From an uncultured Candidatus Saccharibacteria bacterium (GTDB taxonomy: Bacteria; Patescibacteriota; Minisyncoccia; Phycocordibacterales; CSBR16-119), in the NCBI GenBank assembly GCA_964557535.1, contig CAZLAD010000001.1, positions 58,482-122,481 of the forward strand: a DNA stretch of 64,000 nt, written 5' to 3'. Below the pieces are notes generated by a model. That model saw only the letters and a program-made list of their open reading frames with translations, had not been told where the DNA came from and searched no databases. Both the position numbers and the translations under genes were made by a program. Positions 25,713 to 61,386 of this stretch are shown here, piece after piece (positions within the stretch are counted from its first letter, which is position 1; each line of letters begins with the position of its first letter).

Positions 25713-25931
25713 ATGAGTGAAAATAATCAAGCGAAAATAATCACGGGTACTGTATTGGAATCACTTCCTAATACTACTTTTCGGGTTGAATCTGACGATG
25801 GTGCCAAAATTATTTTGGCATATTTGTCTGGTAAAATGCGCAAATTTAGGATCAAGATTATGATAGGTGACAGGGTCGAAGTTGTTACCGATGAGGCCCA
25901 AGAAAAGGGACGCATCTCAAGGAGGCTGTAA
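25713..25931 (+). CDS. infA: Translation initiation factor IF-1
   Basis: S1-like fold: IITGTVLESLPNTTFRVESDDGAKIILAYLSGKMRKFRIKIMIGDRVEV. Confidence 0.9.
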   Translation: MSENNQAKIITGTVLESLPNTTFRVESDDGAKIILAYLSGKMRKFRIKIMIGDRVEVVTDEAQEKGRISRRL

Positions 25932-25942
25932 GAGAGTAAAAG

Positions 25943-26083
25943 GGGGGCTTGCCCACACACCAAGTTAAAACGAAAATCGCCAGATAGCCCAATGTTAATT
26001 TATTACCCTAAAGCATAAAACCACTTCCAGAAATCATTAACTTGGTGTGAGGGCTTGCGTTAATTTTTGATTTGGGTTAGTAT
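25943..26083 (+). repeat. Structured intergenic element A (GGGGGCTTGCCC + long-range IR + GGGCTTGC/-35 + -10) between infA and rpmJ
   Basis: GGGGGGCTTGCCC at 25943-25955. IR CCACACACCAAGTT (25953-25966) and AACTTGGTGTGAGG (26039-26052) with one mismatch. Then GGGCTTGCGT containing a -35 TTGCGT (26055-60), a 17-nt spacer, and TAGTAT (26078-83). It is a homolog of element B at 39980-40151. Confidence 0.65.
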
Positions 26084-26149: not shown

Positions 26150-26272
26150 ATGAAAATAAAGGCGTCCATTAAAAGAAGCGGTTTGGTCCAGGGTGATCAA
26201 ATCGTCAAAAGGAGAGGAAAAATTTATAGGATAAACAAGAAAAACCCTCGTCGTAAAGCTAGACAGGGATAA
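26150..26272 (+). CDS. rpmJ: Ribosomal protein L36 (non-zinc form)
   Basis: A 40-aa [43 protein letters not shown], matching L36 and sitting in the canonical infA-rpmJ-rpsM position. The ORF track missed it because of its length. It lacks the C/C/C/H zinc ligands. Confidence 0.75.
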
Positions 26273-26280
26273 TTTTAAAT

Positions 26281-26661
26281 ATGCGAATTTCAGGTATAAC
26301 AATAAAAGACAATGTTCGACTAGAAATGGGATTAACTGCCCTTTTTGGGGTTGGACGATCTCGAGCAAGAAAAATTTTAGACGAATCTGGGGTTGAATAT
26401 GGTAAAAAATCAAAAGACCTCACTACCGAAGAAGAAAATACAATCCGAAAAGTCGTCGAACAATACAATATCGAAGGAAATCTTAAGCGCGAAATTTCTA
26501 GTAACATAAAGCGATTAAAAGACATCGGTTCTTATAGAGGTTCTCGACACGCAAAGAGACTTCCTGCTCGTGGTCAGCGAACCAAGACTAACTCTCGCAC
26601 TATTCGAGGAAACGTTAGAAAAACAATGGCATCTGGACGAGTAACCGCAACTAAGACATAA
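26281..26661 (+). CDS. rpsM: Ribosomal protein S13
   Basis: MRISGITIKDNVRLEMGLTALFGVGRSRARKIL... Confidence 0.93.
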   Translation: MRISGITIKDNVRLEMGLTALFGVGRSRARKILDESGVEYGKKSKDLTTEEENTIRKVVEQYNIEGNLKREISSNIKRLKDIGSYRGSRHAKRLPARGQRTKTNSRTIRGNVRKTMASGRVTATKT

Positions 26662-38970: not shown

Positions 38971-39006
38971 AATGGCGGACCGTACCCGGTCCGCCATTCC
39001 GCTTTT
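38971..39006. terminator. Bidirectional terminator between the 38553 ORF (+) and corA (-)
   Basis: 12-bp stem AATGGCGGACCG/CGGTCCGCCATT with loop TACC, then CCGCTTTTC. Confidence 0.75.
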
Positions 39007-39926
39007 CACATCCATTTCTTGCCTTTGAAATAGATTATAGTTATGAGTCCGACGATGACCATAAGAACCAAAACCAAGAAAAAGTCATTTGGACTATGGA
39101 TGAAAAGCACGTTTTCAGAAGTGTTCATACCGAAAATTCCAGTAATAAGCGTGACGGGCAGAAGAACCGACGTCATGGCGGTGAGGCGACCCATGGCCGT
39201 GTTTGTCTTTGTGGTCAAAAGTGAGTCGTTCGTGTCTCGCAAGTCAGTTAAAATCTCTTTGCCAACATCGAGGGTGTTTTTGACCCGGTTGTATTCTGAA
39301 GTAGCGATACCGAGAAGGTGATGAAAATTCTGTCCAAATAATTCGACAGACGATATTTCGAAAGATTTAAAAATTTCCCCATGATGACGCAAGGCTTGTT
39401 TGAAATTCAAGAATTTTCTATTCGTTTCAGAGATTTGTGAGACAGCCTCGACTTGTTTTTCTTTGAAAATATTTTTCTCGATCATTTTGAGTGAGTCATT
39501 GATATTTTCGAGGTTGTCGAGAGAGTTTTTGTAAATTTCGCGCAATAAATGTACAAAAAGATATCCGGCATTCTCGCCAATATTTGTTTTGTCGAGGTAT
39601 GATTCGCGTTCAAACATCCGAGAAAAATTGTTTACGGGATCGATTTTTTCATATCGAGTCGTGATTAGAAAATTTTGACCGATAACAAAATCGATTTCTT
39701 GTTCCACGGAATCTTCACCTTGGCCGATGACAGGAAAATGGAGAACCAGATATATAAGACCAAGTTTTTTATAATAATCGACTTTTGAACGAATCGTGCA
39801 AGTCCCGAGTTCTTCAGCGATTGTCTCCGGCAACTTGTATTCTTCGGCAATATCTAGAATCTCGCCACGGGTCGGAGATTCAAGATCAACCCAAGTAGTA
39901 TTTTTATATTTGTATTTGAAAATCAT
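39006..39926 (-). CDS. corA: Magnesium/cobalt transporter CorA
   Basis: C-terminal two TM helices with the signature FGMNTS (GMN) motif. Confidence 0.85.
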   Translation of the reverse strand: MIFKYKYKNTTWVDLESPTRGEILDIAEEYKLPETIAEELGTCTIRSKVDYYKKLGLIYLVLHFPVIGQGEDSVEQEIDFVIGQNFLITTRYEKIDPVNNFSRMFERESYLDKTNIGENAGYLFVHLLREIYKNSLDNLENINDSLKMIEKNIFKEKQVEAVSQISETNRKFLNFKQALRHHGEIFKSFEISSVELFGQNFHHLLGIATSEYNRVKNTLDVGKEILTDLRDTNDSLLTTKTNTAMGRLTAMTSVLLPVTLITGIFGMNTSENVLFIHSPNDFFLVLVLMVIVGLITIIYFKGKKWM

Positions 39927-39979
39927 TTAAAAATTATAACACCCAAACTATGAAAAAACGTCAAAAATATGGGGAATTC

Positions 39980-40151
39980 GGGGGCTTGCCCCCACACCTA
40001 TATTTCCATTATTCTGCTTTTTCAAAATAAGCTTTCAAAATTATCAAAATTATTGGCAATATCAACGGTTGGACTAGTCAAATTTGCAGAATAAAAAGCC
40101 ATGGAAACATAGGTGTAGGGGGCTTGCAATTTTTTGGATTTCATATAGAAT
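39980..40151 (+). repeat. Structured intergenic element B (homolog of element A) carrying the rplU promoter
   Basis: GGGGGCTTGCCCCC hairpin at 39980-39993. IR ACACCTATATTTCCAT (39994-40009) and ATGGAAACATAGGTGT (40101-40116). Then AGGGGGCTTGC with a -35 TTGCAA (40124-29), a 16-nt spacer, and TAGAAT (40146-51), 9 nt before the rplU ATG. Confidence 0.65.
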
Positions 40152-40160
40152 ACTTCCGTT

Positions 40161-40475
40161 ATGAAATTTGCTGTAATCAAAACCGGCGGAAAGCAATATA
40201 AAGTCGCTGAAGGCGAGATTCTAAAGATCGAGAAGCTCGACGGTGACTTCCAAAAAGGTGACAAAGTAACTTTTGATCAAGTTATGGCTGTTATCGATGG
40301 CGACAAAATCGAAGTCGGGACTCCAACGCTTGCCAAGAAAGTTGAGGCCACCTTCGAAGAAGCTGGACGCAACAAAACCATCGACGTTATCAAATACAAA
40401 GCGAAATCAAACTATTTCAAAAAGCGTGGTCACCGACAGCCATTTATAAAGGTAAAAATTGGAAAAATAGCTTAA
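40161..40475 (+). CDS. rplU: Ribosomal protein L21
   Basis: MKFAVIKTGGKQYKVAEGEILKIEKL... No rpmA follows. Confidence 0.92.
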   Translation: MKFAVIKTGGKQYKVAEGEILKIEKLDGDFQKGDKVTFDQVMAVIDGDKIEVGTPTLAKKVEATFEEAGRNKTIDVIKYKAKSNYFKKRGHRQPFIKVKIGKIA

Positions 40476-41606: not shown

Positions 41607-42998
41607 CTAAAAGCTATCAAATGCTTCGTCGGCATTAACTACCGGTCCGTAACCGCCACTTTTCTCGATCGGCAAGAATGTTGAATTTTTCTCGTCGAAA
41701 TACAAATCAACTTTTCCAACCGGACCGTTTCGGTGTTTTTCGATCAAGATCTCGGCGATACCAGTAGACTCGCTGTCGGTTCTGGTACCGGATCTGTCTT
41801 CGCGGTGGATGAACATGACGACGTCGGCGTCTTGTTCGATGGAACCGGAGTCGCGAAGGTCAGAAAGTCTCGGTTTACCACCACGAGATTCGACGGCACG
41901 CGAAAGCTGAGAAAGTGCAAGGACGGGGACGTTTAGTTCGCGAGCGAGGCCTTTGAGCGAGCGGGAAATTTCGGTAACTTGGTTGACCATCGAATCGTAA
42001 TTTTTGCTCGTGTTCATGAGTTGGAGGTAGTCGACGACGATGAGTCCGAGACCGAATTCGGTTTTCCAGCGACGGGCGACGGACTTCATTTTGATGATAG
42101 AGTTTCCAGCTTGGTCGTCGATGTAAATTGGCGCTTTTGAAAGTTCGTTCAAGGCGTCGCGGATTTTATTGAAATCTGACTCGGCGCTAAGTTTCCCGGT
42201 GCGGAGTTTCCAGGCATCGACGTGGGCTTGGGCAGAGAGCATGCGTTGGGTTAATTGTTGCGCAGACATTTCCAGAGAAAATACGCCGACCGGAACACCG
42301 GCTTTGACCGCGGCGTTTCTGGCGATGTCGAGCGCGAGAGTTGTTTTACCGACTGATGGACGCGCCGCGAGAATAATGAGATCGGATTTGTGAAGTCCAC
42401 CAAGCAGGTTGTCGAGACTTGTAAATCCAGTTGTGACGCCACCCAAGCCTTCTTTGTTGTCGTGAAGTTTTTCGAGATGCTCCCAAGTTTCGTGCAAGCT
42501 TTGTTTTAGACTAACGAATGTCTGACCTTTCGGATCGCCGGTAATAGCAAAAACTTTTTTCTCGGCTTCGTCCATCAAGTCTTCGACGGGTACATCGGAT
42601 TCGGAAAATCCAACATTGGCCAAATGTTCTCCGGCTTCGATAAGCCTCCTCATCAAACTTTTCTTGTAAACGATGCGAGCGTAATGCTTCACATTGGTCG
42701 AAGCGGGAACGGAATTTGTCAGATCGGTCAGATATGTGCGGCCACCGATTTGTTCGAGTTGTCCGCGATTTTTTAGAGATGTTGAAAGTGACAAGAGATC
42801 AATCGGTTCGTTTTTGGAAAACAGATCAATCATCGCTTTGAAAATTATGCGATGTTTTTCGGAATAAAAAGTTTCAGCTTGGACGATGTCGATGATTTCG
42901 TTTAGGGCTTGCGGATTTAGCATAATCGAACCCAAAGTTGCTTGCTCGGCATCGAGATCGTGGGGCGGAATGCGTACATGTTTTTTGACTTCAGACAT
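41607..42998 (-). CDS. dnaB: Replicative DNA helicase DnaB
   Basis: Walker A LIILAARPSVGKTTLAL, Walker B VVDYLQLM, and a RecA-like C-terminal domain. Confidence 0.93.
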   Translation of the reverse strand: MSEVKKHVRIPPHDLDAEQATLGSIMLNPQALNEIIDIVQAETFYSEKHRIIFKAMIDLFSKNEPIDLLSLSTSLKNRGQLEQIGGRTYLTDLTNSVPASTNVKHYARIVYKKSLMRRLIEAGEHLANVGFSESDVPVEDLMDEAEKKVFAITGDPKGQTFVSLKQSLHETWEHLEKLHDNKEGLGGVTTGFTSLDNLLGGLHKSDLIILAARPSVGKTTLALDIARNAAVKAGVPVGVFSLEMSAQQLTQRMLSAQAHVDAWKLRTGKLSAESDFNKIRDALNELSKAPIYIDDQAGNSIIKMKSVARRWKTEFGLGLIVVDYLQLMNTSKNYDSMVNQVTEISRSLKGLARELNVPVLALSQLSRAVESRGGKPRLSDLRDSGSIEQDADVVMFIHREDRSGTRTDSESTGIAEILIEKHRNGPVGKVDLYFDEKNSTFLPIEKSGGYGPVVNADEAFDSF

Positions 42999-44344: not shown

Positions 44345-44459
44345 TCCCGTAAGAGATGTTTTGTTAAAAACAATCACTTCGCGGGTAGGGGTTCGAAGAG
44401 TTATTTAATTACAAAAATTAACAGGGTACGCAAATTAATAATTTGCTATCTCTAACGGG
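44345..44459 (+). repeat. IR-bounded element E2 (115 nt) ending at the ATG of a 49-aa membrane ORF
   Basis: TCCCGTAAGAGAT ... TACGCAAATTAATAATTTGCTATCTCTAACGGG followed by ATG. It begins 14 nt after the trpS stop. Confidence 0.75.
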
Positions 44460-44609
44460 ATGAAAAATTTTGTTTTGGGTTTGGTTTTTGTTTTGATTTT
44501 GATTGCGGTTATCGTTTTATTCAAGAGAATGGGCGAAGAGAAAGAACCAGAACTTAGGAGCTTGGACGAATTTTCAAATATTCAGGAGGGCGACATATTG
44601 CCACAATAG
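44460..44609 (+). CDS. Small hydrophobic protein (49 aa), putative
   Basis: MKNFVLGLVFVLILIAVIVLFKRMGEEKEPELRSLDEFSNIQEGDILPQ. The start codon is the ATG that terminates element E2. A terminator follows. It is below the ORF-track length cutoff. Confidence 0.4.
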   Translation: MKNFVLGLVFVLILIAVIVLFKRMGEEKEPELRSLDEFSNIQEGDILPQ

Positions 44610-49151: not shown

Positions 49152-50573
49152 ATGCAATCAAGAACTTATATCCGCGATCTTTCGAGTCGCGCTGGGGAAG
49201 AAGTCGTCATAAAAGGCTGGATTCAGATTCGCCGTGACCAGGGGAAAATGATTTTCTTTGATTTTCGTGACGCCACCGGCGTCGTGCAGGGCGTCGTCCT
49301 TCCGGGTTCTAATGCTATGGATACGGCCAAAGAAACTCGCTCCGAATGGGTGGTTGCGGTCACGGGAAAAGTAAATGCTCGCCCTGAAAAAAATATCAAA
49401 GTCGGGGTTTTAAACGGTGACATCGAACTTGAAGTTTTGGGTATGGAAGTTTTAAACAAGGCCGAGACTCCGCCATTTGATATTTTGGCCGATACGCGCG
49501 AAGTCAACGAAGAAACACGTCTGACCAATCGTTACATCGATATTCGTTCCGAACGCCTCCAGAAAAATCTGCGCATGCGTCACAAGGTTCAGAATTTTGT
49601 GCGAGCAAATTTGGACGCGCAAAATTTCGTGGAAGTTGAAACTCCAATTTTCACCAAATCCACTCCCGAAGGCGCTCGCGATTATGTCGTACCATCTCGC
49701 ATTTATCCGGGAAACTTTTACGCGCTTCCACAATCTCCGCAACAATACAAACAACTTCTCATGGCTGGTGGCATGGAACGCTACTATCAATTCGCTCGTT
49801 GTATGCGTGACGAGGACCTGCGCGGTGATCGCCAACCAGAATTTACTCAGCTCGACATGGAAATGTCTTTTGCGACCGAAGAAGATGTCATGGCGGTGAC
49901 CGAAAATCTGCTCATAAAAATTGTCACAGAGCTTTATCCTGAGAAAAAAATTCAAGCAATTCCTTTCCCGAGAATTCCTTATAAAGAAGCGATGGAAAAA
50001 TATGGATCCGATCGGCCGGACATTCGCGAAAACAAAGAAGACCCAAACTCTCTCGCGTTTTGCTGGGTAGTGGATTTTCCATTTTTCGAAAGAACTGACA
50101 AATCTGACAATCCTCAGGCCGAGGGAGAATGGACATTTACTCACAATCCGTTTTCGATGTGCAAACCAGAGCATTTACCAAATGTTATGAACAAGGAAAA
50201 TATTGGTGATGTTCTCGCGGCGCAATACGACATCGTCCTCAATGGTTATGAAATCGGCGGGGGATCGATTCGTGCGCATGATCCGGAGATTTTGAAAAAT
50301 ATTCTCGGCATCCTCGGCTACACTCCAGAGAAAATCGAAACCGACTACGGCCACATGCTTCGGGCGCTTGCATCCGGCACGCCTCCGCACGGCGGACTTG
50401 CTTGGGGCTTTGATCGTCTGATGATGATTCTCCAAAACGAACCGAACATCCGCGAAGTTATTGCATTTCCGAAAACTCGAGAGGGAAGAGATCCAATGAT
50501 GCAATCACCGTCACCAGTTTCGGATAAACAACTCGCGGAACTAAATATTTCGATAAATAAAAGAAGGGAATAA
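49152..50573 (+). CDS. aspS: Aspartyl-tRNA synthetase (short form without GAD insertion domain)
   Basis: N-terminal OB anticodon-binding domain. Class II motifs (FRDATGV...; GGGSIR; GLAWGFDRL). 473 aa. Confidence 0.93.
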   Translation: MQSRTYIRDLSSRAGEEVVIKGWIQIRRDQGKMIFFDFRDATGVVQGVVLPGSNAMDTAKETRSEWVVAVTGKVNARPEKNIKVGVLNGDIELEVLGMEVLNKAETPPFDILADTREVNEETRLTNRYIDIRSERLQKNLRMRHKVQNFVRANLDAQNFVEVETPIFTKSTPEGARDYVVPSRIYPGNFYALPQSPQQYKQLLMAGGMERYYQFARCMRDEDLRGDRQPEFTQLDMEMSFATEEDVMAVTENLLIKIVTELYPEKKIQAIPFPRIPYKEAMEKYGSDRPDIRENKEDPNSLAFCWVVDFPFFERTDKSDNPQAEGEWTFTHNPFSMCKPEHLPNVMNKENIGDVLAAQYDIVLNGYEIGGGSIRAHDPEILKNILGILGYTPEKIETDYGHMLRALASGTPPHGGLAWGFDRLMMILQNEPNIREVIAFPKTREGRDPMMQSPSPVSDKQLAELNISINKRRE

Positions 50574-51875: not shown

Positions 51876-52430
51876 ATGAATTTGGAATCAAAAATCGAAT
51901 CTTTTTTGTTTTGGAAAGGTGAACCGCAGACAGAGTGGGAGATAGCTGTTGCTATGCGAGTTGATCCGGCTGAAATTCCGGGAGCCCTGGCAAAGCTCGA
52001 AGAATCGCTAAAAGGCCATGGTGTTACACTTGTCCGTCATGGAAACAAGGTGATGCTTGGCACGAATCCCGAAATGTCACATTTTTTTGAAGAACTTCAG
52101 AAAGAAGAACTGAGCAAAGAACTTTCCAAAGCTGCGCTCGAGACACTTTCGATAATTCTCTACAAGGATTCGGTGACGCGAAGCGAGATAAATTTTATTC
52201 GCGGAGTGAACTCAGGATACATCTTGAGAAATCTGGAAATTCGCGGATTGGTGGAGAAAGCAAACCAAAAAAACGATGCCCGCACGTATGTTTACAAGCC
52301 GACTCTCGAATTGTTATCATATCTCGGGGTTTCCAAGGTCTCCGATTTGCCACAGTTCGAAACGATCAGAAATACACTCGAGACCAAGCTCTCCGGTCAG
52401 CCAGATCAGGAAGGAAATGAATCCCGTTAG
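51876..52430 (+). CDS. scpB: Segregation and condensation protein B
   Basis: Tandem winged helices (ALETLSIILYKDSVTRSEINFIRGVNSGYILRNLEIRGLVEK). Confidence 0.85.
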   Translation: MNLESKIESFLFWKGEPQTEWEIAVAMRVDPAEIPGALAKLEESLKGHGVTLVRHGNKVMLGTNPEMSHFFEELQKEELSKELSKAALETLSIILYKDSVTRSEINFIRGVNSGYILRNLEIRGLVEKANQKNDARTYVYKPTLELLSYLGVSKVSDLPQFETIRNTLETKLSGQPDQEGNESR

Positions 52431-52539
52431 AGATTGATTGGTTACAAATTCAGAAAAAAGCGGGTAGAATACGAAGGGTAAATTAATTATAAATTTTAAT
52501 ACAAGCTACGTCGCGCCGGGTGCGACTATCTCTAACGGG
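52421..52539 (+). repeat. IR-bounded element E5 (119 nt); left IR overlaps the scpB stop codon
   Basis: ATCCCGTTAGAGAT at 52421-52434 contains the scpB TAG. ...GTCGCGCCGGGTGCGACTATCTCTAACGGG is followed by ATG (dacA-like). Confidence 0.75.
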
Positions 52540-53481
52540 ATGAAGATTAGAATTAAAGAATCCGAAAGACAAATTATATTTGCGATGGTCTTACTGGCCA
52601 TCGTGGGTGTTTTTTATGTTCGTCAAATAAATCAAGAAATTATTTTAGGTGAAATAAAAGACAAAGAAATTCTCGCATACGAGGAATCGATTAAACCGTT
52701 TTTGAACTTGGCGCTCGAGGCCAAATCTTTCGCTATTTATGACGCTGATATAAATAATTTTGTTTACAAGAAAAACGCCGAGAGCGCCATGCCGCTTGCA
52801 AGTCTGGCCAAAGTCATGAGCGCGATTGTGGTGATGGAGAATGCACCGGCCGACACGGTGTTTGAAATTTCCAAAGAATCGCTTGACCAAGCCGCCGATC
52901 ATGGACTTCTACTTCATGAGAAATGGACTCGTGACGAACTTTTGAAATTTGCGCTACTTGTCTCTTCAAATGACGCTATTCACGAGCTTGCACTTGAAAC
53001 AGGCCAGATCATGGATCCCGAAGCCAAAGACTCGCTCCAAGTTTTCGTAGCGCGTATGAATACCAAAGCATCCGAACTAGGGCTCAAAAGTTTTGTCTTC
53101 AAAAACGAATCAGGACTTGATCTAAATGAAGCAGAAAATGGTGCGTATGGTTCGGCGCGCGACATGGCCAAACTTTTTGCTTACGCGGTCAAAACCTATC
53201 CAGAAATTTTTGACGTAACTCGCACCAAGATTGCGACGATTGCCTCACTTGATAAATCGCACAACATCGACAACACCAACACTGTCGTCGAAGAAATTCC
53301 TGGAATTGTCGCTTCAAAGACTGGATTTACGACTCTCACTGGTGGGAATTTGGTCGTAGCGACAACCCCCGATGCCAAATCAACTCGCGTTATGATAGTC
53401 ATGGGATCGACATATGATGAACGCTTTACCGACATGAAAACTCTCACCAGTGCCGTGGCCCATAGTAACAATAATTTATGA
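52540..53481 (+). CDS. dacA: D-alanyl-D-alanine carboxypeptidase (S11, PBP5/6-like)
   Basis: SLAKVMS (SxxK), SSND (SxN) and KTGFT (KTG) motifs. N-terminal TM or signal. Confidence 0.8.
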   Translation: MKIRIKESERQIIFAMVLLAIVGVFYVRQINQEIILGEIKDKEILAYEESIKPFLNLALEAKSFAIYDADINNFVYKKNAESAMPLASLAKVMSAIVVMENAPADTVFEISKESLDQAADHGLLLHEKWTRDELLKFALLVSSNDAIHELALETGQIMDPEAKDSLQVFVARMNTKASELGLKSFVFKNESGLDLNEAENGAYGSARDMAKLFAYAVKTYPEIFDVTRTKIATIASLDKSHNIDNTNTVVEEIPGIVASKTGFTTLTGGNLVVATTPDAKSTRVMIVMGSTYDERFTDMKTLTSAVAHSNNNL

Positions 53482-55410: not shown

Positions 55411-56514
55411 ATGTCATCTCTTGGAAAAGTCGACAAGTTTTTTCTTTATACGGTTATTGCGCTACTCGTACTTGGCTACGTCAGTTTCGTATCCGCGTCT
55501 TTTGGTGTACTCGCCAAAAGTTCTTCTAAGTTTTGGAGCATGATCATTTCACAATCAATTGGACTTGTTCTCGGAGGATTTTTCATGTATTGGTTTTCGC
55601 GCATTGATTATAAGGTCTGGCGCAAATACGCCTTTTTTATTTTTATCGCTTCAATCGGACTCACACTTCTCGTTTTTATACCAGCGATCAGTCTCGAGCA
55701 TGGCGGAGCGAGGCGTTGGATTGATATCGGACCATTTTCTTTTCAGCCCGTCGAAGTTTTAAAAATCGCATTTGTGATGTACTTTGCCGGCTGGCTCTCG
55801 TGGGTCAAAGGTCGCGCCAAAGAGATAAAATATGGAATCTTGCCAATGCTTATCATGCTTGGAATTGTTGCGGGAATACTTTTACAACAACCAGACACAA
55901 AAAGCATAATTCTTTTGTTTGTTGCCGGATCATCAATGTTGCTTTTGTCTGGCGTACCATGGAAATATGTTTTGTATGGAATGATAATCGCAGTTTTGTT
56001 TTTCGGGGTCTTGGCTTTTTCGAAATCTTATCTGATGAATCGCGTAAAAACTTTTCTTGATCCAAGTGCCGACAGATTGGGTTCTTCTTACCAGTTAAAT
56101 AATGCAATTATCGCCGTTGGTTCTGGGGGAATTTTTGGTCGTGGTTTGGGTCAAAGTATTCAAAAATTTACTTATTTGCCAGAACCCCAGGGCGACTCGA
56201 TTTTCGCCGTAATTGGTGAAGAATTTGGCCTCGTCGGATCTCTAATCATCGTATTGCTCTTTATTATTTTTGGTCTAAGGGGTCTCCGGATAGCTTATCG
56301 AGCACCGGATTCGTTCGGTAGACTAATGGTCGCCGGAATTGTTATACTGATGGTAGGGCAATCATTTTTAAATATTGCTTCGATTATTGGTCTTTTCCCT
56401 TTGACGGGAGTTCCGCTTGTTTTTATAAGTCAGGGGGGGACAGCTCTGATTGTCGCCATGATGGCCACAGGGATTATTCTAAACGTTTCTAGATATCAGT
56501 TACAAAATCGGTAG
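55411..56514 (+). CDS. ftsW: SEDS-family peptidoglycan glycosyltransferase FtsW/RodA
   Basis: 10 TM topology. Conserved loop NAIIAVGSGGIFGRGLGQSIQKFTYLPEPQGDSIFAVIGEEFG. Confidence 0.88.
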   Translation: MSSLGKVDKFFLYTVIALLVLGYVSFVSASFGVLAKSSSKFWSMIISQSIGLVLGGFFMYWFSRIDYKVWRKYAFFIFIASIGLTLLVFIPAISLEHGGARRWIDIGPFSFQPVEVLKIAFVMYFAGWLSWVKGRAKEIKYGILPMLIMLGIVAGILLQQPDTKSIILLFVAGSSMLLLSGVPWKYVLYGMIIAVLFFGVLAFSKSYLMNRVKTFLDPSADRLGSSYQLNNAIIAVGSGGIFGRGLGQSIQKFTYLPEPQGDSIFAVIGEEFGLVGSLIIVLLFIIFGLRGLRIAYRAPDSFGRLMVAGIVILMVGQSFLNIASIIGLFPLTGVPLVFISQGGTALIVAMMATGIILNVSRYQLQNR

Positions 56515-56521
56515 GATATAA

Positions 56522-56638
56522 ATCCCGTTAGAGATGTCGTAGTCAAAATTATTCAGGAAGGTTATAAAATAATGGTCGTCAATTACTTACAAAATATTAA
56601 GTCAGATACGCAAACCAAAGTTTGCTATCTCTAACAGG
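56522..56638 (+). repeat. IR-bounded element E6 (117 nt) filling the ftsW-murG spacer
   Basis: ATCCCGTTAGAGAT ... GGTCGTCAATTACTTACAAAAT...GATACGCAAACCAAAGTTTGCTATCTCTAACAGG followed by the murG ATG. Confidence 0.75.
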
Positions 56639-57769
56639 ATGAAAATTGTTATTACAGGCGGTGGTTCGGGAGGGCATTTTTATCCTGCTATCGCAATAGC
56701 AGAGAAGTTGAACGAACTTGCATTGGCTGAAAAAATTTTAGATCTTGAGCTTTTTTATATTGCCGACACCCCATACGACAAACGCGCGCTCGACGACAAT
56801 CGAATGACTTTTTTGGAACTAAATACTGGAAAACAAAGAACATATTTTTCTGTTCAAAATTTTTTTGATATCTTCAAAACTTTTTTCGCGACAATTCGAG
56901 CAATTTTTATCCTTTATAAAATTTTTCCAGATGTTGTTTTCTCCAAAGGTGGCTATCCGTCGGTTCCGGTGACTATTGCTTCGAGAGTGCTTGGGATACC
57001 TGTCGTTATCCACGAATCAGATTCTGTACCTGGACGCGCCAACAAAATGGCTGGTAAGTGGGCAAAACGTATTGCGATTTCTTACAAAGAAGCTTCGGAT
57101 TATTTCCCCAAAGAAAAAACCGCTTTCGTTGGACACATTGTCAGAAAAGAAATTCGAACACCGCTTAGAGAGGGGGCTTTTGAATATCTAAAATTAAAGT
57201 CTTCTTTGCCTGTTATTTTTATTTTGGGTGGTTCGCAAGGTGCCAAGATAATAAACGAGACGATTTTAAATGCTTTGCCAGAGCTTGTCACGAGATATCA
57301 AATTATCCATCAGACAGGAGTAAAAAATTTTGAAGAAGTGAAAATTATTGCCGATCTAAATCTAAAAGAATCAGAAGCCAAACAAAATTATTATCCATAT
57401 CCATATCTAAACAAACTAGCCATACGTATGGCGGCGGGGGTCGCGGAGCTTGTCGTCTCTCGTGCGGGAGCAAATTCTATTGCCGAAATAGCATCATGGG
57501 GACTACCGTCTATCATCATCCCGATAACAAAAACAAATGGTGATCACCAGCGCAACAATGCGTTTAACTATGCTGAAACAGGAGCATGTGTAGTAATCGA
57601 AGAATCCAATTTGGCTCCGAATGTTTTGATCGAAGAAATAGATAGGCTTTTTGCTGATACAGCGACCTTTAAAAACATGAAGGAAGCAACATCAAAATTT
57701 GTTTTTCCAGACGCCGAAGAAAAAATTGCCCGAGAGATAATTAATATCGGACTTTCCCATGAGCAATAA
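56639..57769 (+). CDS. murG: UDP-GlcNAc:MurNAc-pentapeptide GlcNAc transferase
   Basis: N-terminal GGGSGGHFYPA loop. GT-B fold. C-terminal UDP-binding region. Confidence 0.9.
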   Translation: MKIVITGGGSGGHFYPAIAIAEKLNELALAEKILDLELFYIADTPYDKRALDDNRMTFLELNTGKQRTYFSVQNFFDIFKTFFATIRAIFILYKIFPDVVFSKGGYPSVPVTIASRVLGIPVVIHESDSVPGRANKMAGKWAKRIAISYKEASDYFPKEKTAFVGHIVRKEIRTPLREGAFEYLKLKSSLPVIFILGGSQGAKIINETILNALPELVTRYQIIHQTGVKNFEEVKIIADLNLKESEAKQNYYPYPYLNKLAIRMAAGVAELVVSRAGANSIAEIASWGLPSIIIPITKTNGDHQRNNAFNYAETGACVVIEESNLAPNVLIEEIDRLFADTATFKNMKEATSKFVFPDAEEKIAREIINIGLSHEQ

Positions 57770-60937: not shown

Positions 60938-61056
60938 TCCCGGTAGTGATACCTCGGTTTTGGATGGGATAATTAGTAATCTAACCACGGTCGTGAATTC
61001 TTTACAAAAAACTAACTTCGATACGCAAATTTAATAAATTTGCTATCACTATCGGG
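60938..61056 (+). repeat. IR-bounded element E7 (119 nt) ending at the ATG of the 61057 gene
   Basis: TCCCGGTAGTGATA ... CCACGGTCGTGAATTCTTTACAAAAAACTAACTTCGATACGCAAATTTAATAAATTTGCTATCACTATCGGG followed by ATG. It contains the same CACGGTCGTG motif as the grpE promoter region. Confidence 0.75.
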
Positions 61057-61386
61057 ATGATAAAAATCCTCGTCGGTGTGATTCTCTTGCTTGTTGTGCT
61101 CGGACTTTTGGGTGTATCTGTCCAGCACGATGTTATCGAACATGAAGGTGTTCAAGAAAACGTCTCGTATGTCTCGACAGGGGTCGTGGGATTTTGGAAT
61201 ACATATTTATCTCAACCCGCGCAATGGTTATGGCAAGAACTCATTGTAAATATTCTCTGGGAAACTTTTGCTCGAAATATGGAACGTCTACGTGACGGCG
61301 AGACTCCGACTGACTTCACCAATTCGCACCTCGACGACTGGCCAAGTATCCCGGAACTTATCGACAATTACAACGCGAATAATTAA
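61057..61386 (+). CDS. Hypothetical membrane-anchored protein (109 aa)
   Basis: N-terminal TM (IKILVGVILLLVVLGLLGV). No motifs. Confidence 0.45.
   Translation: MIKILVGVILLLVVLGLLGVSVQHDVIEHEGVQENVSYVSTGVVGFWNTYLSQPAQWLWQELIVNILWETFARNMERLRDGETPTDFTNSHLDDWPSIPELIDNYNANN

Follow-up and report, generated by a model that had tools for sequence, protein, structure and literature searches.

The Correia elements of Neisseria (CREE or NEMIS) are gene-less miniature inverted-repeat transposable elements (MITEs) of about 100 to 150 bp, with long inverted repeats and a TA duplication; they are polymorphic between strains and often lie at promoters. Homing endonucleases, in turn, move into homologous alleles that are empty; inverted-repeat ends, duplications and gene-less derivatives are not known for them. 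In the rRNA genes of bacteria of the candidate phyla radiation (CPR), GIY-YIG open reading frames (ORFs) have been reported within non-intron insertions, along with many short (<200 bp) uncharacterised insertions that hold no ORF; the same report describes no inverted-repeat ends, duplications, gene-less derivatives or promoter sites, and the terms 'inverted repeat' and 'hairpin' are absent from it (Tsurumaki et al. 2024, PMC11270868). Here we analyse two hairpin-forming modules, A (between infA and rpmJ) and B (between corA and rplU), in a 64-kb stretch of DNA from an uncultured Candidatus Saccharibacteria bacterium (this whole stretch of 64,000 nucleotides is referred to below as the window; its RpoA is 77-78% identical to that of named Ca. 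Paceibacterota metagenome-assembled genomes [MAGs]). We conclude, with good confidence, that A and B belong, as non-autonomous and MITE-like copies, to a family of small mobile elements found widely among Patescibacteria, whose full-length members carry a GIY-YIG nuclease gene. The family is apparently undescribed; full-text literature searches turned up neither inverted-repeat/duplication elements or MITEs in Patescibacteria nor bacterial transposons that carry a GIY-YIG gene, and only the study of CPR rRNA insertions comes near it.

Both modules, here delimited as A at 25942-26057 and B at 39980-40126, are present where a sequence-only reading of the window had placed them, and that reading was right to treat them as homologous: they share the described architecture and belong to one family. 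Their parts are as follows.

25942-25947, plus strand: G-run GGGGGG, on the target side of element A and outside the element.
25948-25951, plus strand: left CTTG of element A, a 4-bp direct repeat (target-site duplication).
25952-26053: element A proper, 102 bp, with arms CCCACACACCAAGTT and AACTTGGTGTGAGGG and an AT-rich interior.
25952-25966: left inverted repeat of element A, CCCACACACCAAGTT.
26039-26053: right inverted repeat of element A, AACTTGGTGTGAGGG.
26054-26057, plus strand: right CTTG of element A, whose TTG opens the -35 hexamer.
26055-26083, plus strand: putative sigma-70-type promoter of rpmJ-rpsM, TTGCGT (26055-26060), 17 nt, TAGTAT (26078-26083).
39980-39984, plus strand: G-run GGGGG, on the target side of element B, found in filled and empty alleles.
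39985-39988, plus strand: left CTTG direct repeat of element B.
39989-40122: element B proper, 134 bp.
39989-40009: left inverted repeat of element B, CCCCCACACCTATATTTCCAT.
40101-40122: right inverted repeat of element B, ATGGAAACATAGGTGT-A-GGGGG (= ATGGAAACATAGGTGTAGGGGG), with one extra A and one mismatch.
40123-40126, plus strand: right CTTG of element B, whose TTG opens the -35 hexamer.
40124-40151, plus strand: putative rplU promoter, TTGCAA (40124-40129), 16 nt, TAGAAT (40146-40151).

The arms of element A are 15 nt each and enclose 72 nt; those of element B are 21-22 nt and enclose 91 nt, with imperfect pairing that continues inward of the arms (ATTATTCTGC / GCAGAATAA). Neither module contains an ORF of note. 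For both, the long-range helix is the minimum-free-energy fold (-40.9 kcal/mol with a z score of -1.9 for A; -53.1 kcal/mol with a z score of -3.1 for B, for which none of 200 shuffles was as good). The inverted repeat of 14-16 bp given in the sequence-only reading thus stands as a helix that folds, but not in its boundaries, because the repeat reaches out to the C-run and the G-run and so takes in the 'CCC' and 'GGG' that had been assigned to flanking motifs. The unit repeated on either side of each module is the 4-mer CTTG. What had been read as a 'GGGGGCTTGCCC hairpin' opening each module is a junction artefact, made up of the G-run, the duplication and the start of the left arm; '(A)GGGGGCTTGC', likewise, is the end of the right arm followed by the duplication and a C. 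The sequence GGGCTTGC occurs five times in the window (1.18 expected; 0 of 100 shuffles reach five), and four of the five copies are those of modules A and B. The fifth, at 42905, lies inside a dnaB-like ORF; it was considered as an element copy and set aside as chance. A search for further copies with relaxed patterns and a repeat finder found none in the 64-kb window beyond A and B, whereas outside it the same ends occur in more than 100 Patescibacteria contigs.

Comparison with close relatives indicates that the modules are insertions. As compared strains we took contigs that encode an identical InfA or RplU protein and are 95-100% identical to the window. Element A is found in three of them (L001, L002 and L006) and is absent from L005, which is 96-98.6% identical to the window; element B is found in two (L010 and L011) and is absent from five (L007, L008, L009, L012 and L013; 95-99.8% identical). 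Filled and empty alleles differ in size by 108 bp (A) and 137 bp (B), close to the GGGCTTGC-to-GGGCTTGC spacings of 106 and 138 bp. The empty A site of L005 reads ...GAGTGGGGGGGG-CTTG-CGTTAATT... (pre-site flank GGGGGGGG) and keeps a G-run of eight G; its single CTTG is exactly what a 4-bp target duplication predicts. In sister species (L266-L270; RpoA 93% identical) the A site, ...TATTGTCCT-CTTG-CGTTAATTTTGG..., also has one CTTG and has no G-run, and in a species with RpoA at 88% identity a short degenerate hairpin lies at the position of A. The empty B alleles read ...GAATTCGGGGG-TATTG-CAATTTTTT... (that is, GGGGG TATTG CAATTT). All five strains without B keep an identical TTGCAA-16-TAGAAT, and L005 and the sister species keep the -35/-10 pair of A (CTTGCGTTAATTTTGGATTTGAGTTAATAT in the sister species); because the same hexamers are found in element-free strains and sister species, we conclude that the promoter pre-exists the module.

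Relatives of A and B were collected in two ways, each of which shapes what can be read from the flanks. A scan of a genome collection with GGGCTTGCCCNNACACC forced GGGCTTG, so that the left flank is biased, and returned mostly chance matches in high-GC genomes; among the matches listed, at least about nine useful ones are from Patescibacteria, with the same architecture upstream of rpsL, rplU and a dksA-like gene in MAGs of Nomurabacteria, Paceibacterota and Saccharibacteria. A flank-neutral metagenome scan (GCCCCCACACC-N90-120-GGTGTGGGGGC), which forced G/C outside the arms, gave 109 contigs, mostly of 30-47% G+C, with many loci redundant between samples. Two matches are on viral contigs, one apparently in coding sequence as judged by eye (L243), the other a run of GGGGGCTTGCCCCC hairpins (L244).

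The family ends are CCCCCACACC and GGTGTGGGGG, with the outer 10 nt nearly constant. Across 62 unique elements, ten of the eleven positions inward of CACACC are Watson-Crick paired in 82-100% of cases and the eleventh in 69% (30-69% when arms are shuffled or paired at random), and most positions show three or four pair types; the internal inverted repeat, which had been put forward for a covariance check, therefore covaries across the family. The inverted repeat is about 21 bp long and gapless, constant on the outside and variable but symmetric on the inside. Because the inner 11 nt or so vary between copies and yet are complementary within each copy, the short gene-less element amounts to one long hairpin. 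A direct repeat of at least 4 nt flanks 74 of 106 arm pairs (about 12 expected; some loci are redundant), and its modal length is 4 nt. Where the pattern forced G/C by the arms, the repeats are C-N-N-G, mostly CTTG but also CGTG, CCAG, CTGG and CGAG; in copies found incidentally, with unforced flanks, they are TTAT, TAAA, TTTT and TTGA. Flank repeats of 2 nt (TT) and then of 8-10 nt (GGGGGCTTGC) had been entertained and were dropped in favour of 4 nt, given these unforced copies and the GIY-YIG units described below. A G-run that mimics the end of the right arm accompanies about half of the copies, and it is often a recognisable remnant or mimic of that arm (L163, L090, L186, L253 and L279).

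The copies behave as dispersed paralogues. Elements upstream of rpsO (L161, L164 and L173) and of rpsL (L198 and L211) are 92-95% identical over 138 bp in unrelated flanks, two of them (L173 and L211) in the same metagenome; the asymmetric interior is found in both orientations relative to the promoter; several contigs hold more than one copy (L160, L155, L157, L186 and L257); and tandem arrays share the 4-mer between neighbours (L113, L212 and L257). The first 38 nt of element B are 97% identical to the end of a gene-less element upstream of hup (L183), its terminal 15-20 nt are identical to the ends of two GIY-YIG units (L245 and L257), and the arm sequence CACACCAAGTT of element A recurs in L139 and L228. 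The family thus has terminal inverted repeats, a flanking duplication of fixed length, and small, non-coding, dispersed copies (two of them in the window), as a MITE does.

Some peculiarities of individual copies stand apart from this. Both arms of element A depart from the family consensus at one shared position (left C to A, right G to A), leaving an A-A mismatch, and in the L010 copy of B (983-1118) both arms are changed at one shared position with pairing not restored (T-A to A/G), so that the changes are paired yet non-compensatory. The 10-mer TGGACTAGTC of element B (window 40070-40082) recurs in the rpsL 5' region of L021 and L198 (GGACTAGTCGTTTCGACTA), which may be chance. A GC-richer class in other metagenomes (L140, L168, L171, L199, L206, L216 and L237) has complete outer hairpins, CGTGGGGGC-NNN-GCCCCCACACCCCCGCAAGG, resembling the paired repetitive extragenic palindromic (REP) elements known as REPINs; L143, L167 and L221 hold arrays of GCCCCCACACCCCCGTGGAGGCG with a 27-nt period; and similar GTGGGGGCTTGCCCCCACACCCC hairpins occur in MAGs labelled Firmicutes, Spirochaetia and Rickettsiales (L026, L037 and L114).

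The insertion sites coincide with promoters to a degree well above background. Counting each outward flank once and taking those with TTG at their start, we find a -10-like hexamer 16-18 nt past the TTGnnn in 36 of 47; among control CTTG sites in the same loci the figure is 501 of 4943 (10%). The genes downstream are mostly highly expressed ones (rplU, rpsL, rpsO, hup, groES, rpmF, rpmE, infA, fusA, rpsF, rplJ, csrA, a dksA-like gene and the 16S rRNA operon), so that the link to ribosomal-protein genes made in the sequence-only reading is borne out as a strong association of the family with these and other highly expressed genes. Judged from sequence, the right-hand TTGCnn very probably serves as the -35 box of the rpmJ and rplU promoters, a view supported by the retention of the same -35/-10 pair in strains and sister species that have no module. 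A consensus scan reported the promoter of B (TTGCAA-16-TAGAAT) at 9/12; that of A (TTGCGT-17-TAGTAT) scored 7/12, under the threshold of the scan, and an alternative, TTGATT-18-TATATT, exists near A. It had also been proposed that the -35 box is embedded in GGGCTTGC, correctly, in that the TTG is part of the duplicated target; because the TTG sits in that target and the right copy rebuilds the hexamer, insertion just 5' of the -35 box leaves the promoter intact. The bias may reflect targeting (the G-run plus CTTG being like the element's own end), as we infer, rather than survival alone (these being the only harmless sites in a gene-dense genome). The 16S rRNA promoter of L166 has an element at its -35 box; a group I intron is also present in the 16S gene of that contig.

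Copies are also found within genes for stable RNAs. There are elements inside 23S rRNA genes (L155, 3772-3908 and 5527-5660; L193, 794-931), and the one in L193 replaces the helix tip at about 1751-1776 of the Rfam LSU model, where the native stem (gCcccccc...ggggggGc) resembles the arms. Elements split tRNA genes at C36-A37-A38-G39 (CAAG), in the anticodon loop and stem, in L139 (2080-2360; a tRNA-Glu(CUC)-like gene), L150 (1590-1960; tRNA-Gly(CCC)) and L226 (3190-3467). Others adjoin the ends of tRNA genes or of RNase P RNA, and in some cases a whole tRNA-Gly(CCC) lies between the arms. L150 shows a nested arrangement, with a tRNA-Gly(CCC)-carrying element placed within a tRNA of that kind which itself belongs to an outer element.

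Full-length members of the family are 312-316 bp long and have one gene, which encodes an 84-residue GIY-YIG nuclease of the UPF0213/Slx1 branch. In L160 the ORF between the family arms is a GIY-YIG domain (PF01541, E = 9e-20), and such ORFs lie between family arms in L160, L212, L211, L245, L253, L257, L276 and L279, with intact homologues in L212 and L211; the L160 copy carries a frameshift. The direct repeats flanking these units are TTAT, CTTG, ATTT, CCTA, TAAA and GCCCGC. Five independently retrieved homologues are all bounded by family ends and a short direct repeat:

L245, GIY-YIG unit: repeat TTAT, at a DnaA-box-like TTATCCACA.
L253, GIY-YIG unit: repeat CCTA, at a tRNA 3' end.
L257, GIY-YIG unit: repeat TAAA, followed by two gene-less copies.
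L276 and L279, GIY-YIG units: repeat of the GCCCGC type, at a tRNA 3' end.

In L264 and L259, related species whose neighbouring genes match those of L245, AAAGTTATCC is present once; against them the L245 unit stands out as an insertion of 320 bp into that sequence. In both L245 (1448-1790) and L160 (3510-3850) the unit is inserted in the TTAT of the DnaA-box-like sequence, beside tRNA genes. Gene-bearing and gene-less forms occur side by side in L257 and L212, where GIY-YIG units are joined in tandem, through a shared 4-mer, to gene-less copies whose ends are the same; in L212 the gene-less element is the one at the rplU promoter. The ORF fills the unit exactly. Across Paceibacterota, Nomurabacteria and allied lineages there are 171 relatives of the nuclease, with identities of 68-89%; residues of catalytic type (Y5, Y16, G18, R26, H30 and E50) are invariant in 23 sequences; and the nearest solved structures are the UPF0213 proteins 1YWL and 1ZG2 (EF2693 and BH0048; E of about 1e-5), followed by SLX1, a structure-specific nuclease. 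We examined 0.94 Mb of low-GC loci for matching arms separated by more than 200 bp; the only contents were this GIY-YIG ORF, tRNA genes, or a couple of elements, adjacent or in tandem, that pair through their outer arms. Among arms 600-6000 bp apart, none encloses a transposase-sized unit, the pairs being confined to the two elements of one 23S gene (L155), to tandem arrays (L256-L258) and to the GC-richer class (L140).

The direct observations are thus insertion polymorphism, inverted repeats, duplications, dispersed paralogues, coincidence with promoters, and nuclease cargo with an empty site. On our reading, insertion duplicates 4 nt of target, occasionally 5, and copies accumulate at the upstream edge of strong sigma-70-type promoters (of genes for ribosomal proteins, HU, GroES, EF-G and rRNA), at 23S helix tips, and in or beside tRNA genes. 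The GIY-YIG nuclease would be the driver of this mobility, probably by recognising or cutting a hairpin or junction structure together with a target like the element's end, after which the insertion would be finished by host repair. The nuclease may recognise the folded form, given that symmetry is kept despite sequence variation and that the nuclease is of a structure-specific type. A and B themselves are probably inactive relics now, because their ends are imperfect (the mismatch at the same position of both arms in A, the extra base in the right arm of B), and they would have little effect on the expression of rpmJ or rplU. More tentatively, and with rather less than even confidence, we suggest that the GIY-YIG nuclease itself mobilises an unrecognised class of transposable element, with a unit of about 316 bp whose gene-less derivatives home to -35 edges and seed the rRNA and tRNA insertions of CPR bacteria; if so, the unit would be among the smallest autonomous mobile elements known.

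Several points weigh against this account. The empty B allele is GGGGG TATTG CAA, rather than the GGGGG CTTG CAA expected from a clean 4-bp duplication. Elements between corA and rplU are also found in species with only about 60% RplU identity, which raises the possibility that B is ancient and that imprecise deletion gave rise to the 'empty' strains; and as direct repeats around a hairpin favour deletion by slippage, polymorphism alone gives no direction. The preference for CTTG is partly built in, because the metagenome pattern forced G/C (hence C-N-N-G) and the genome scan forced GGGCTTG. The copies in 23S rRNA genes have no duplication and lie at sites where the native helix already resembles the arms. 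To our knowledge a GIY-YIG domain alone cannot carry out strand transfer, and we know of no biochemical precedent for such a transposase; the 64-kb window contains no GIY-YIG gene. Finally, long-term presence at the promoters of highly expressed genes could reflect a benefit to the host rather than neutrality.

A rival is the conserved regulatory RNA or DNA structure suggested in the sequence-only reading, which would be a cruciform or an RNA leader or hairpin used by a host factor to control the promoters of translation genes. The strong, oriented association with the promoters of rplU, rpsL, rpsO, hup, groES and rRNA speaks for it, as do the conservation of arm sequence across class-level lineages while interiors diverge, the covariation of the helix, and the retention of the element at corA-rplU across distant species. 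Still, we regard such a structure as quite improbable, and the same holds for its more specific form, in which the conserved 10-bp base of the helix would be a protein-binding site and the variable distal stem a spacer. The element is missing in conspecific strains and in sister species whose promoters are otherwise unchanged; it is flanked by duplications, has copies 92-95% identical at unrelated loci and an interior in either orientation, and lies in 23S rRNA and tRNA genes, and some family members carry a nuclease. The idea of a 'promoter module' is not supported, on the same grounds, and a regulatory role as a secondary effect is conceivable, though dispensability, duplications, dispersed paralogues and the rRNA and tRNA sites argue against it. 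With the promoter downstream of the hairpin, the transcript of the following gene would not include it; no Rfam family matched at gathering score over the whole window, and the E-value mode, run on both modules, gave only weak, generic matches to long hairpins (miRNA precursors). An intrinsic terminator or insulator hairpin, stopping read-through before a strong promoter, is very improbable to our mind. Element A begins 10 nt past the stop codon of infA, with TTAATTTTTG 6-8 nt after the stem, and the hairpins are stable and GC-clamped in either strand, so that the terminator role suggested for infA is conceivable at A; at B it is impossible, as nothing reads in between the divergent corA and rplU, and the same is true of the xerC-like/rpsO locus and of corA/rplU in relatives. 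No U-tract directly follows the stem, a terminator scan was empty at A and B, and a terminator needs neither a conserved stem sequence nor flanking duplications nor nuclease cargo. We read the family as MITE-like, targeted to or retained at -35 boxes, and not as a dedicated regulatory RNA.

Among mobile-element explanations, the one that competes with a GIY-YIG-driven family is a MITE family moved by an unseen conventional transposase (for example, a DDE enzyme making 4-bp duplications), with the GIY-YIG gene as a passenger or as an invader of the hairpin loop in the manner of homing endonucleases. Terminal inverted repeats with a fixed short duplication are a hallmark of DDE transposition, which the family fits; the GIY-YIG domain has, as far as we know, no strand-transfer chemistry, and homing-endonuclease genes commonly colonise the loops of other selfish elements. 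The presence of tRNA genes as cargo likewise indicates that cargo can be incidental. On the other side, the 0.94 Mb of element-rich, low-GC loci yielded no larger unit with family ends and a transposase-sized ORF between matching arms (DDE transposases were not systematically searched for), a tblastn search of 1.82 Mb gave no match to a Y1 transposase (a weak test, the IS200 TnpA query being approximate), and the GIY-YIG ORF fills a unit that is bounded by family ends and a duplication and has clean empty sites. We hold a conventional transposase to be unlikely. Hardly credible, in our view, is a REP/REPIN element maintained by a REP-associated tyrosine transposase (RAYT; an IS200-like Y1 enzyme), or a palindromic element derived from IS200/IS605. 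It is true that the element, like a REPIN, folds over its full length into one hairpin whose ends are conserved and whose interior varies, that some copies (L090 and L186) have the full outer hairpin GGTGTGGGGGC-TT-GCCCCCACACC, and that the GC-richer class in other phyla looks like true paired REPs; but single-strand transposition of the HUH/Y1 type is not known to leave the 4-bp duplications that flank the family, most copies lack the outer hairpin arm, and the Y1 search just described, weak as it was, found nothing.

The genes around the two modules are the following.

25713-25931, plus strand: infA, upstream of A (Pfam eIF-1a, E = 4e-16).
26150-26272, plus strand: rpmJ (L36), the first gene downstream of A (Pfam Ribosomal_L36).
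26281-26661, plus strand: rpsM, after rpmJ (Pfam Ribosomal_S13).
39006-39926, minus strand: corA, transcribed away from B (Pfam CorA, E = 8e-49).
40161-40475, plus strand: rplU (L21), downstream of B (Pfam Ribosomal_L21p, E = 1.5e-30).

The synteny of corA and rplU with an intervening element is also seen in L212, L157 and L213. As its -10 box ends 9 nt before the ATG at 40161, the rplU mRNA is probably leaderless or nearly so. The same appears to hold for corA, where the extended -10 TGTTATAAT ends 7 nt before the ATG (window 39927-39990), and both genes are without a Shine-Dalgarno sequence. The window contains a separate repeat family as well (2473-2604, 44440-44486, 52409-52447, 52526-52558, 56510-56535, 56619-56665 and 61037-61083), in which TTTGCTATCTCTAACGGG (variant ATCACTATCGGG) directly abuts the ATG of several genes, with starts at 2483 (minus strand), 52540, 56639 and 61057; the variant does so at 49152 and 51876. 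Roughly 100 nt further upstream there is an inverted copy, (ATGAA)TCCCGTTAGAGAT, and these repeats resemble a start-codon-sequestering hairpin or a cassette boundary within a gene cluster.

Should the mobile-element reading of A and B be true, it would explain a recurrent signature before ribosomal-protein, HU, GroES and rRNA genes across Patescibacteria, and would guard annotators from calling that signature a regulatory motif, a leader RNA or a terminator. Some of the short insertions in CPR rRNA genes that still lack an explanation would gain a candidate source, and there would be an example of 'harmless' target choice, in which a mobile element persists despite very high gene density by landing at sites whose -35 box its duplication restores. 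The promoter architecture of uncultured CPR bacteria would then be readable from sequence, and a minimal GIY-YIG nuclease might prove to drive transposition, adding an enzyme class to those of prokaryotic transposons.

The family shares features with several described systems. Like the leaders of ribosomal-protein operons (for example, the L21 leader), A and B are structured and stand in front of rplU and rpmJ-rpsM; unlike them, they lie upstream of the putative promoter and would be outside the transcript, match no Rfam family and are dispensable in close relatives. Hairpin-forming extragenic repeats with conserved ends, variable interiors and many copies are likewise typical of REP/REPIN-RAYT systems and of palindromes derived from IS200/IS605, from which the family differs in its target duplications, in the usual absence of a complete outer REP hairpin and, on the weak test available, in the lack of a Y1 transposase. 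The cargo protein is a single GIY-YIG domain that resembles the UPF0213/YhbQ and Slx1 nucleases in sequence. In being small selfish nuclease genes that are present or absent between relatives, the GIY-YIG units recall free-standing GIY-YIG homing endonucleases (the T4 Seg proteins and I-TevI), but they have inverted-repeat ends, 4-nt repeats and gene-less derivatives, and the places where they are found, namely a DnaA-box-like sequence, the 3' ends of tRNA genes and the rplU promoter, are unrelated to one another. The hairpin-forming insertions of about 100-140 bp at 23S helix tips (L155 and L193) are like the insertions of CPR rRNA genes and the intervening sequences of 23S rRNA, although A and B are intergenic; the insertions of PMC11270868 probably belong to the same family. 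The Correia elements are similar in being small, gene-less and hairpin-forming, with a short target duplication, dispersed between genes, polymorphic between strains and adjacent to promoters. The present family is distinguished from them by a duplication of 4 bp (CTTG and others) in place of TA, by unrelated end sequences of which only the outer 10 nt or so are constant while interiors are highly diverged, by insertion precisely at the 5' edge of the -35 hexamer, by a distribution that spans a phylum-level radiation, and by a candidate autonomous partner that encodes a GIY-YIG nuclease rather than a DDE transposase.

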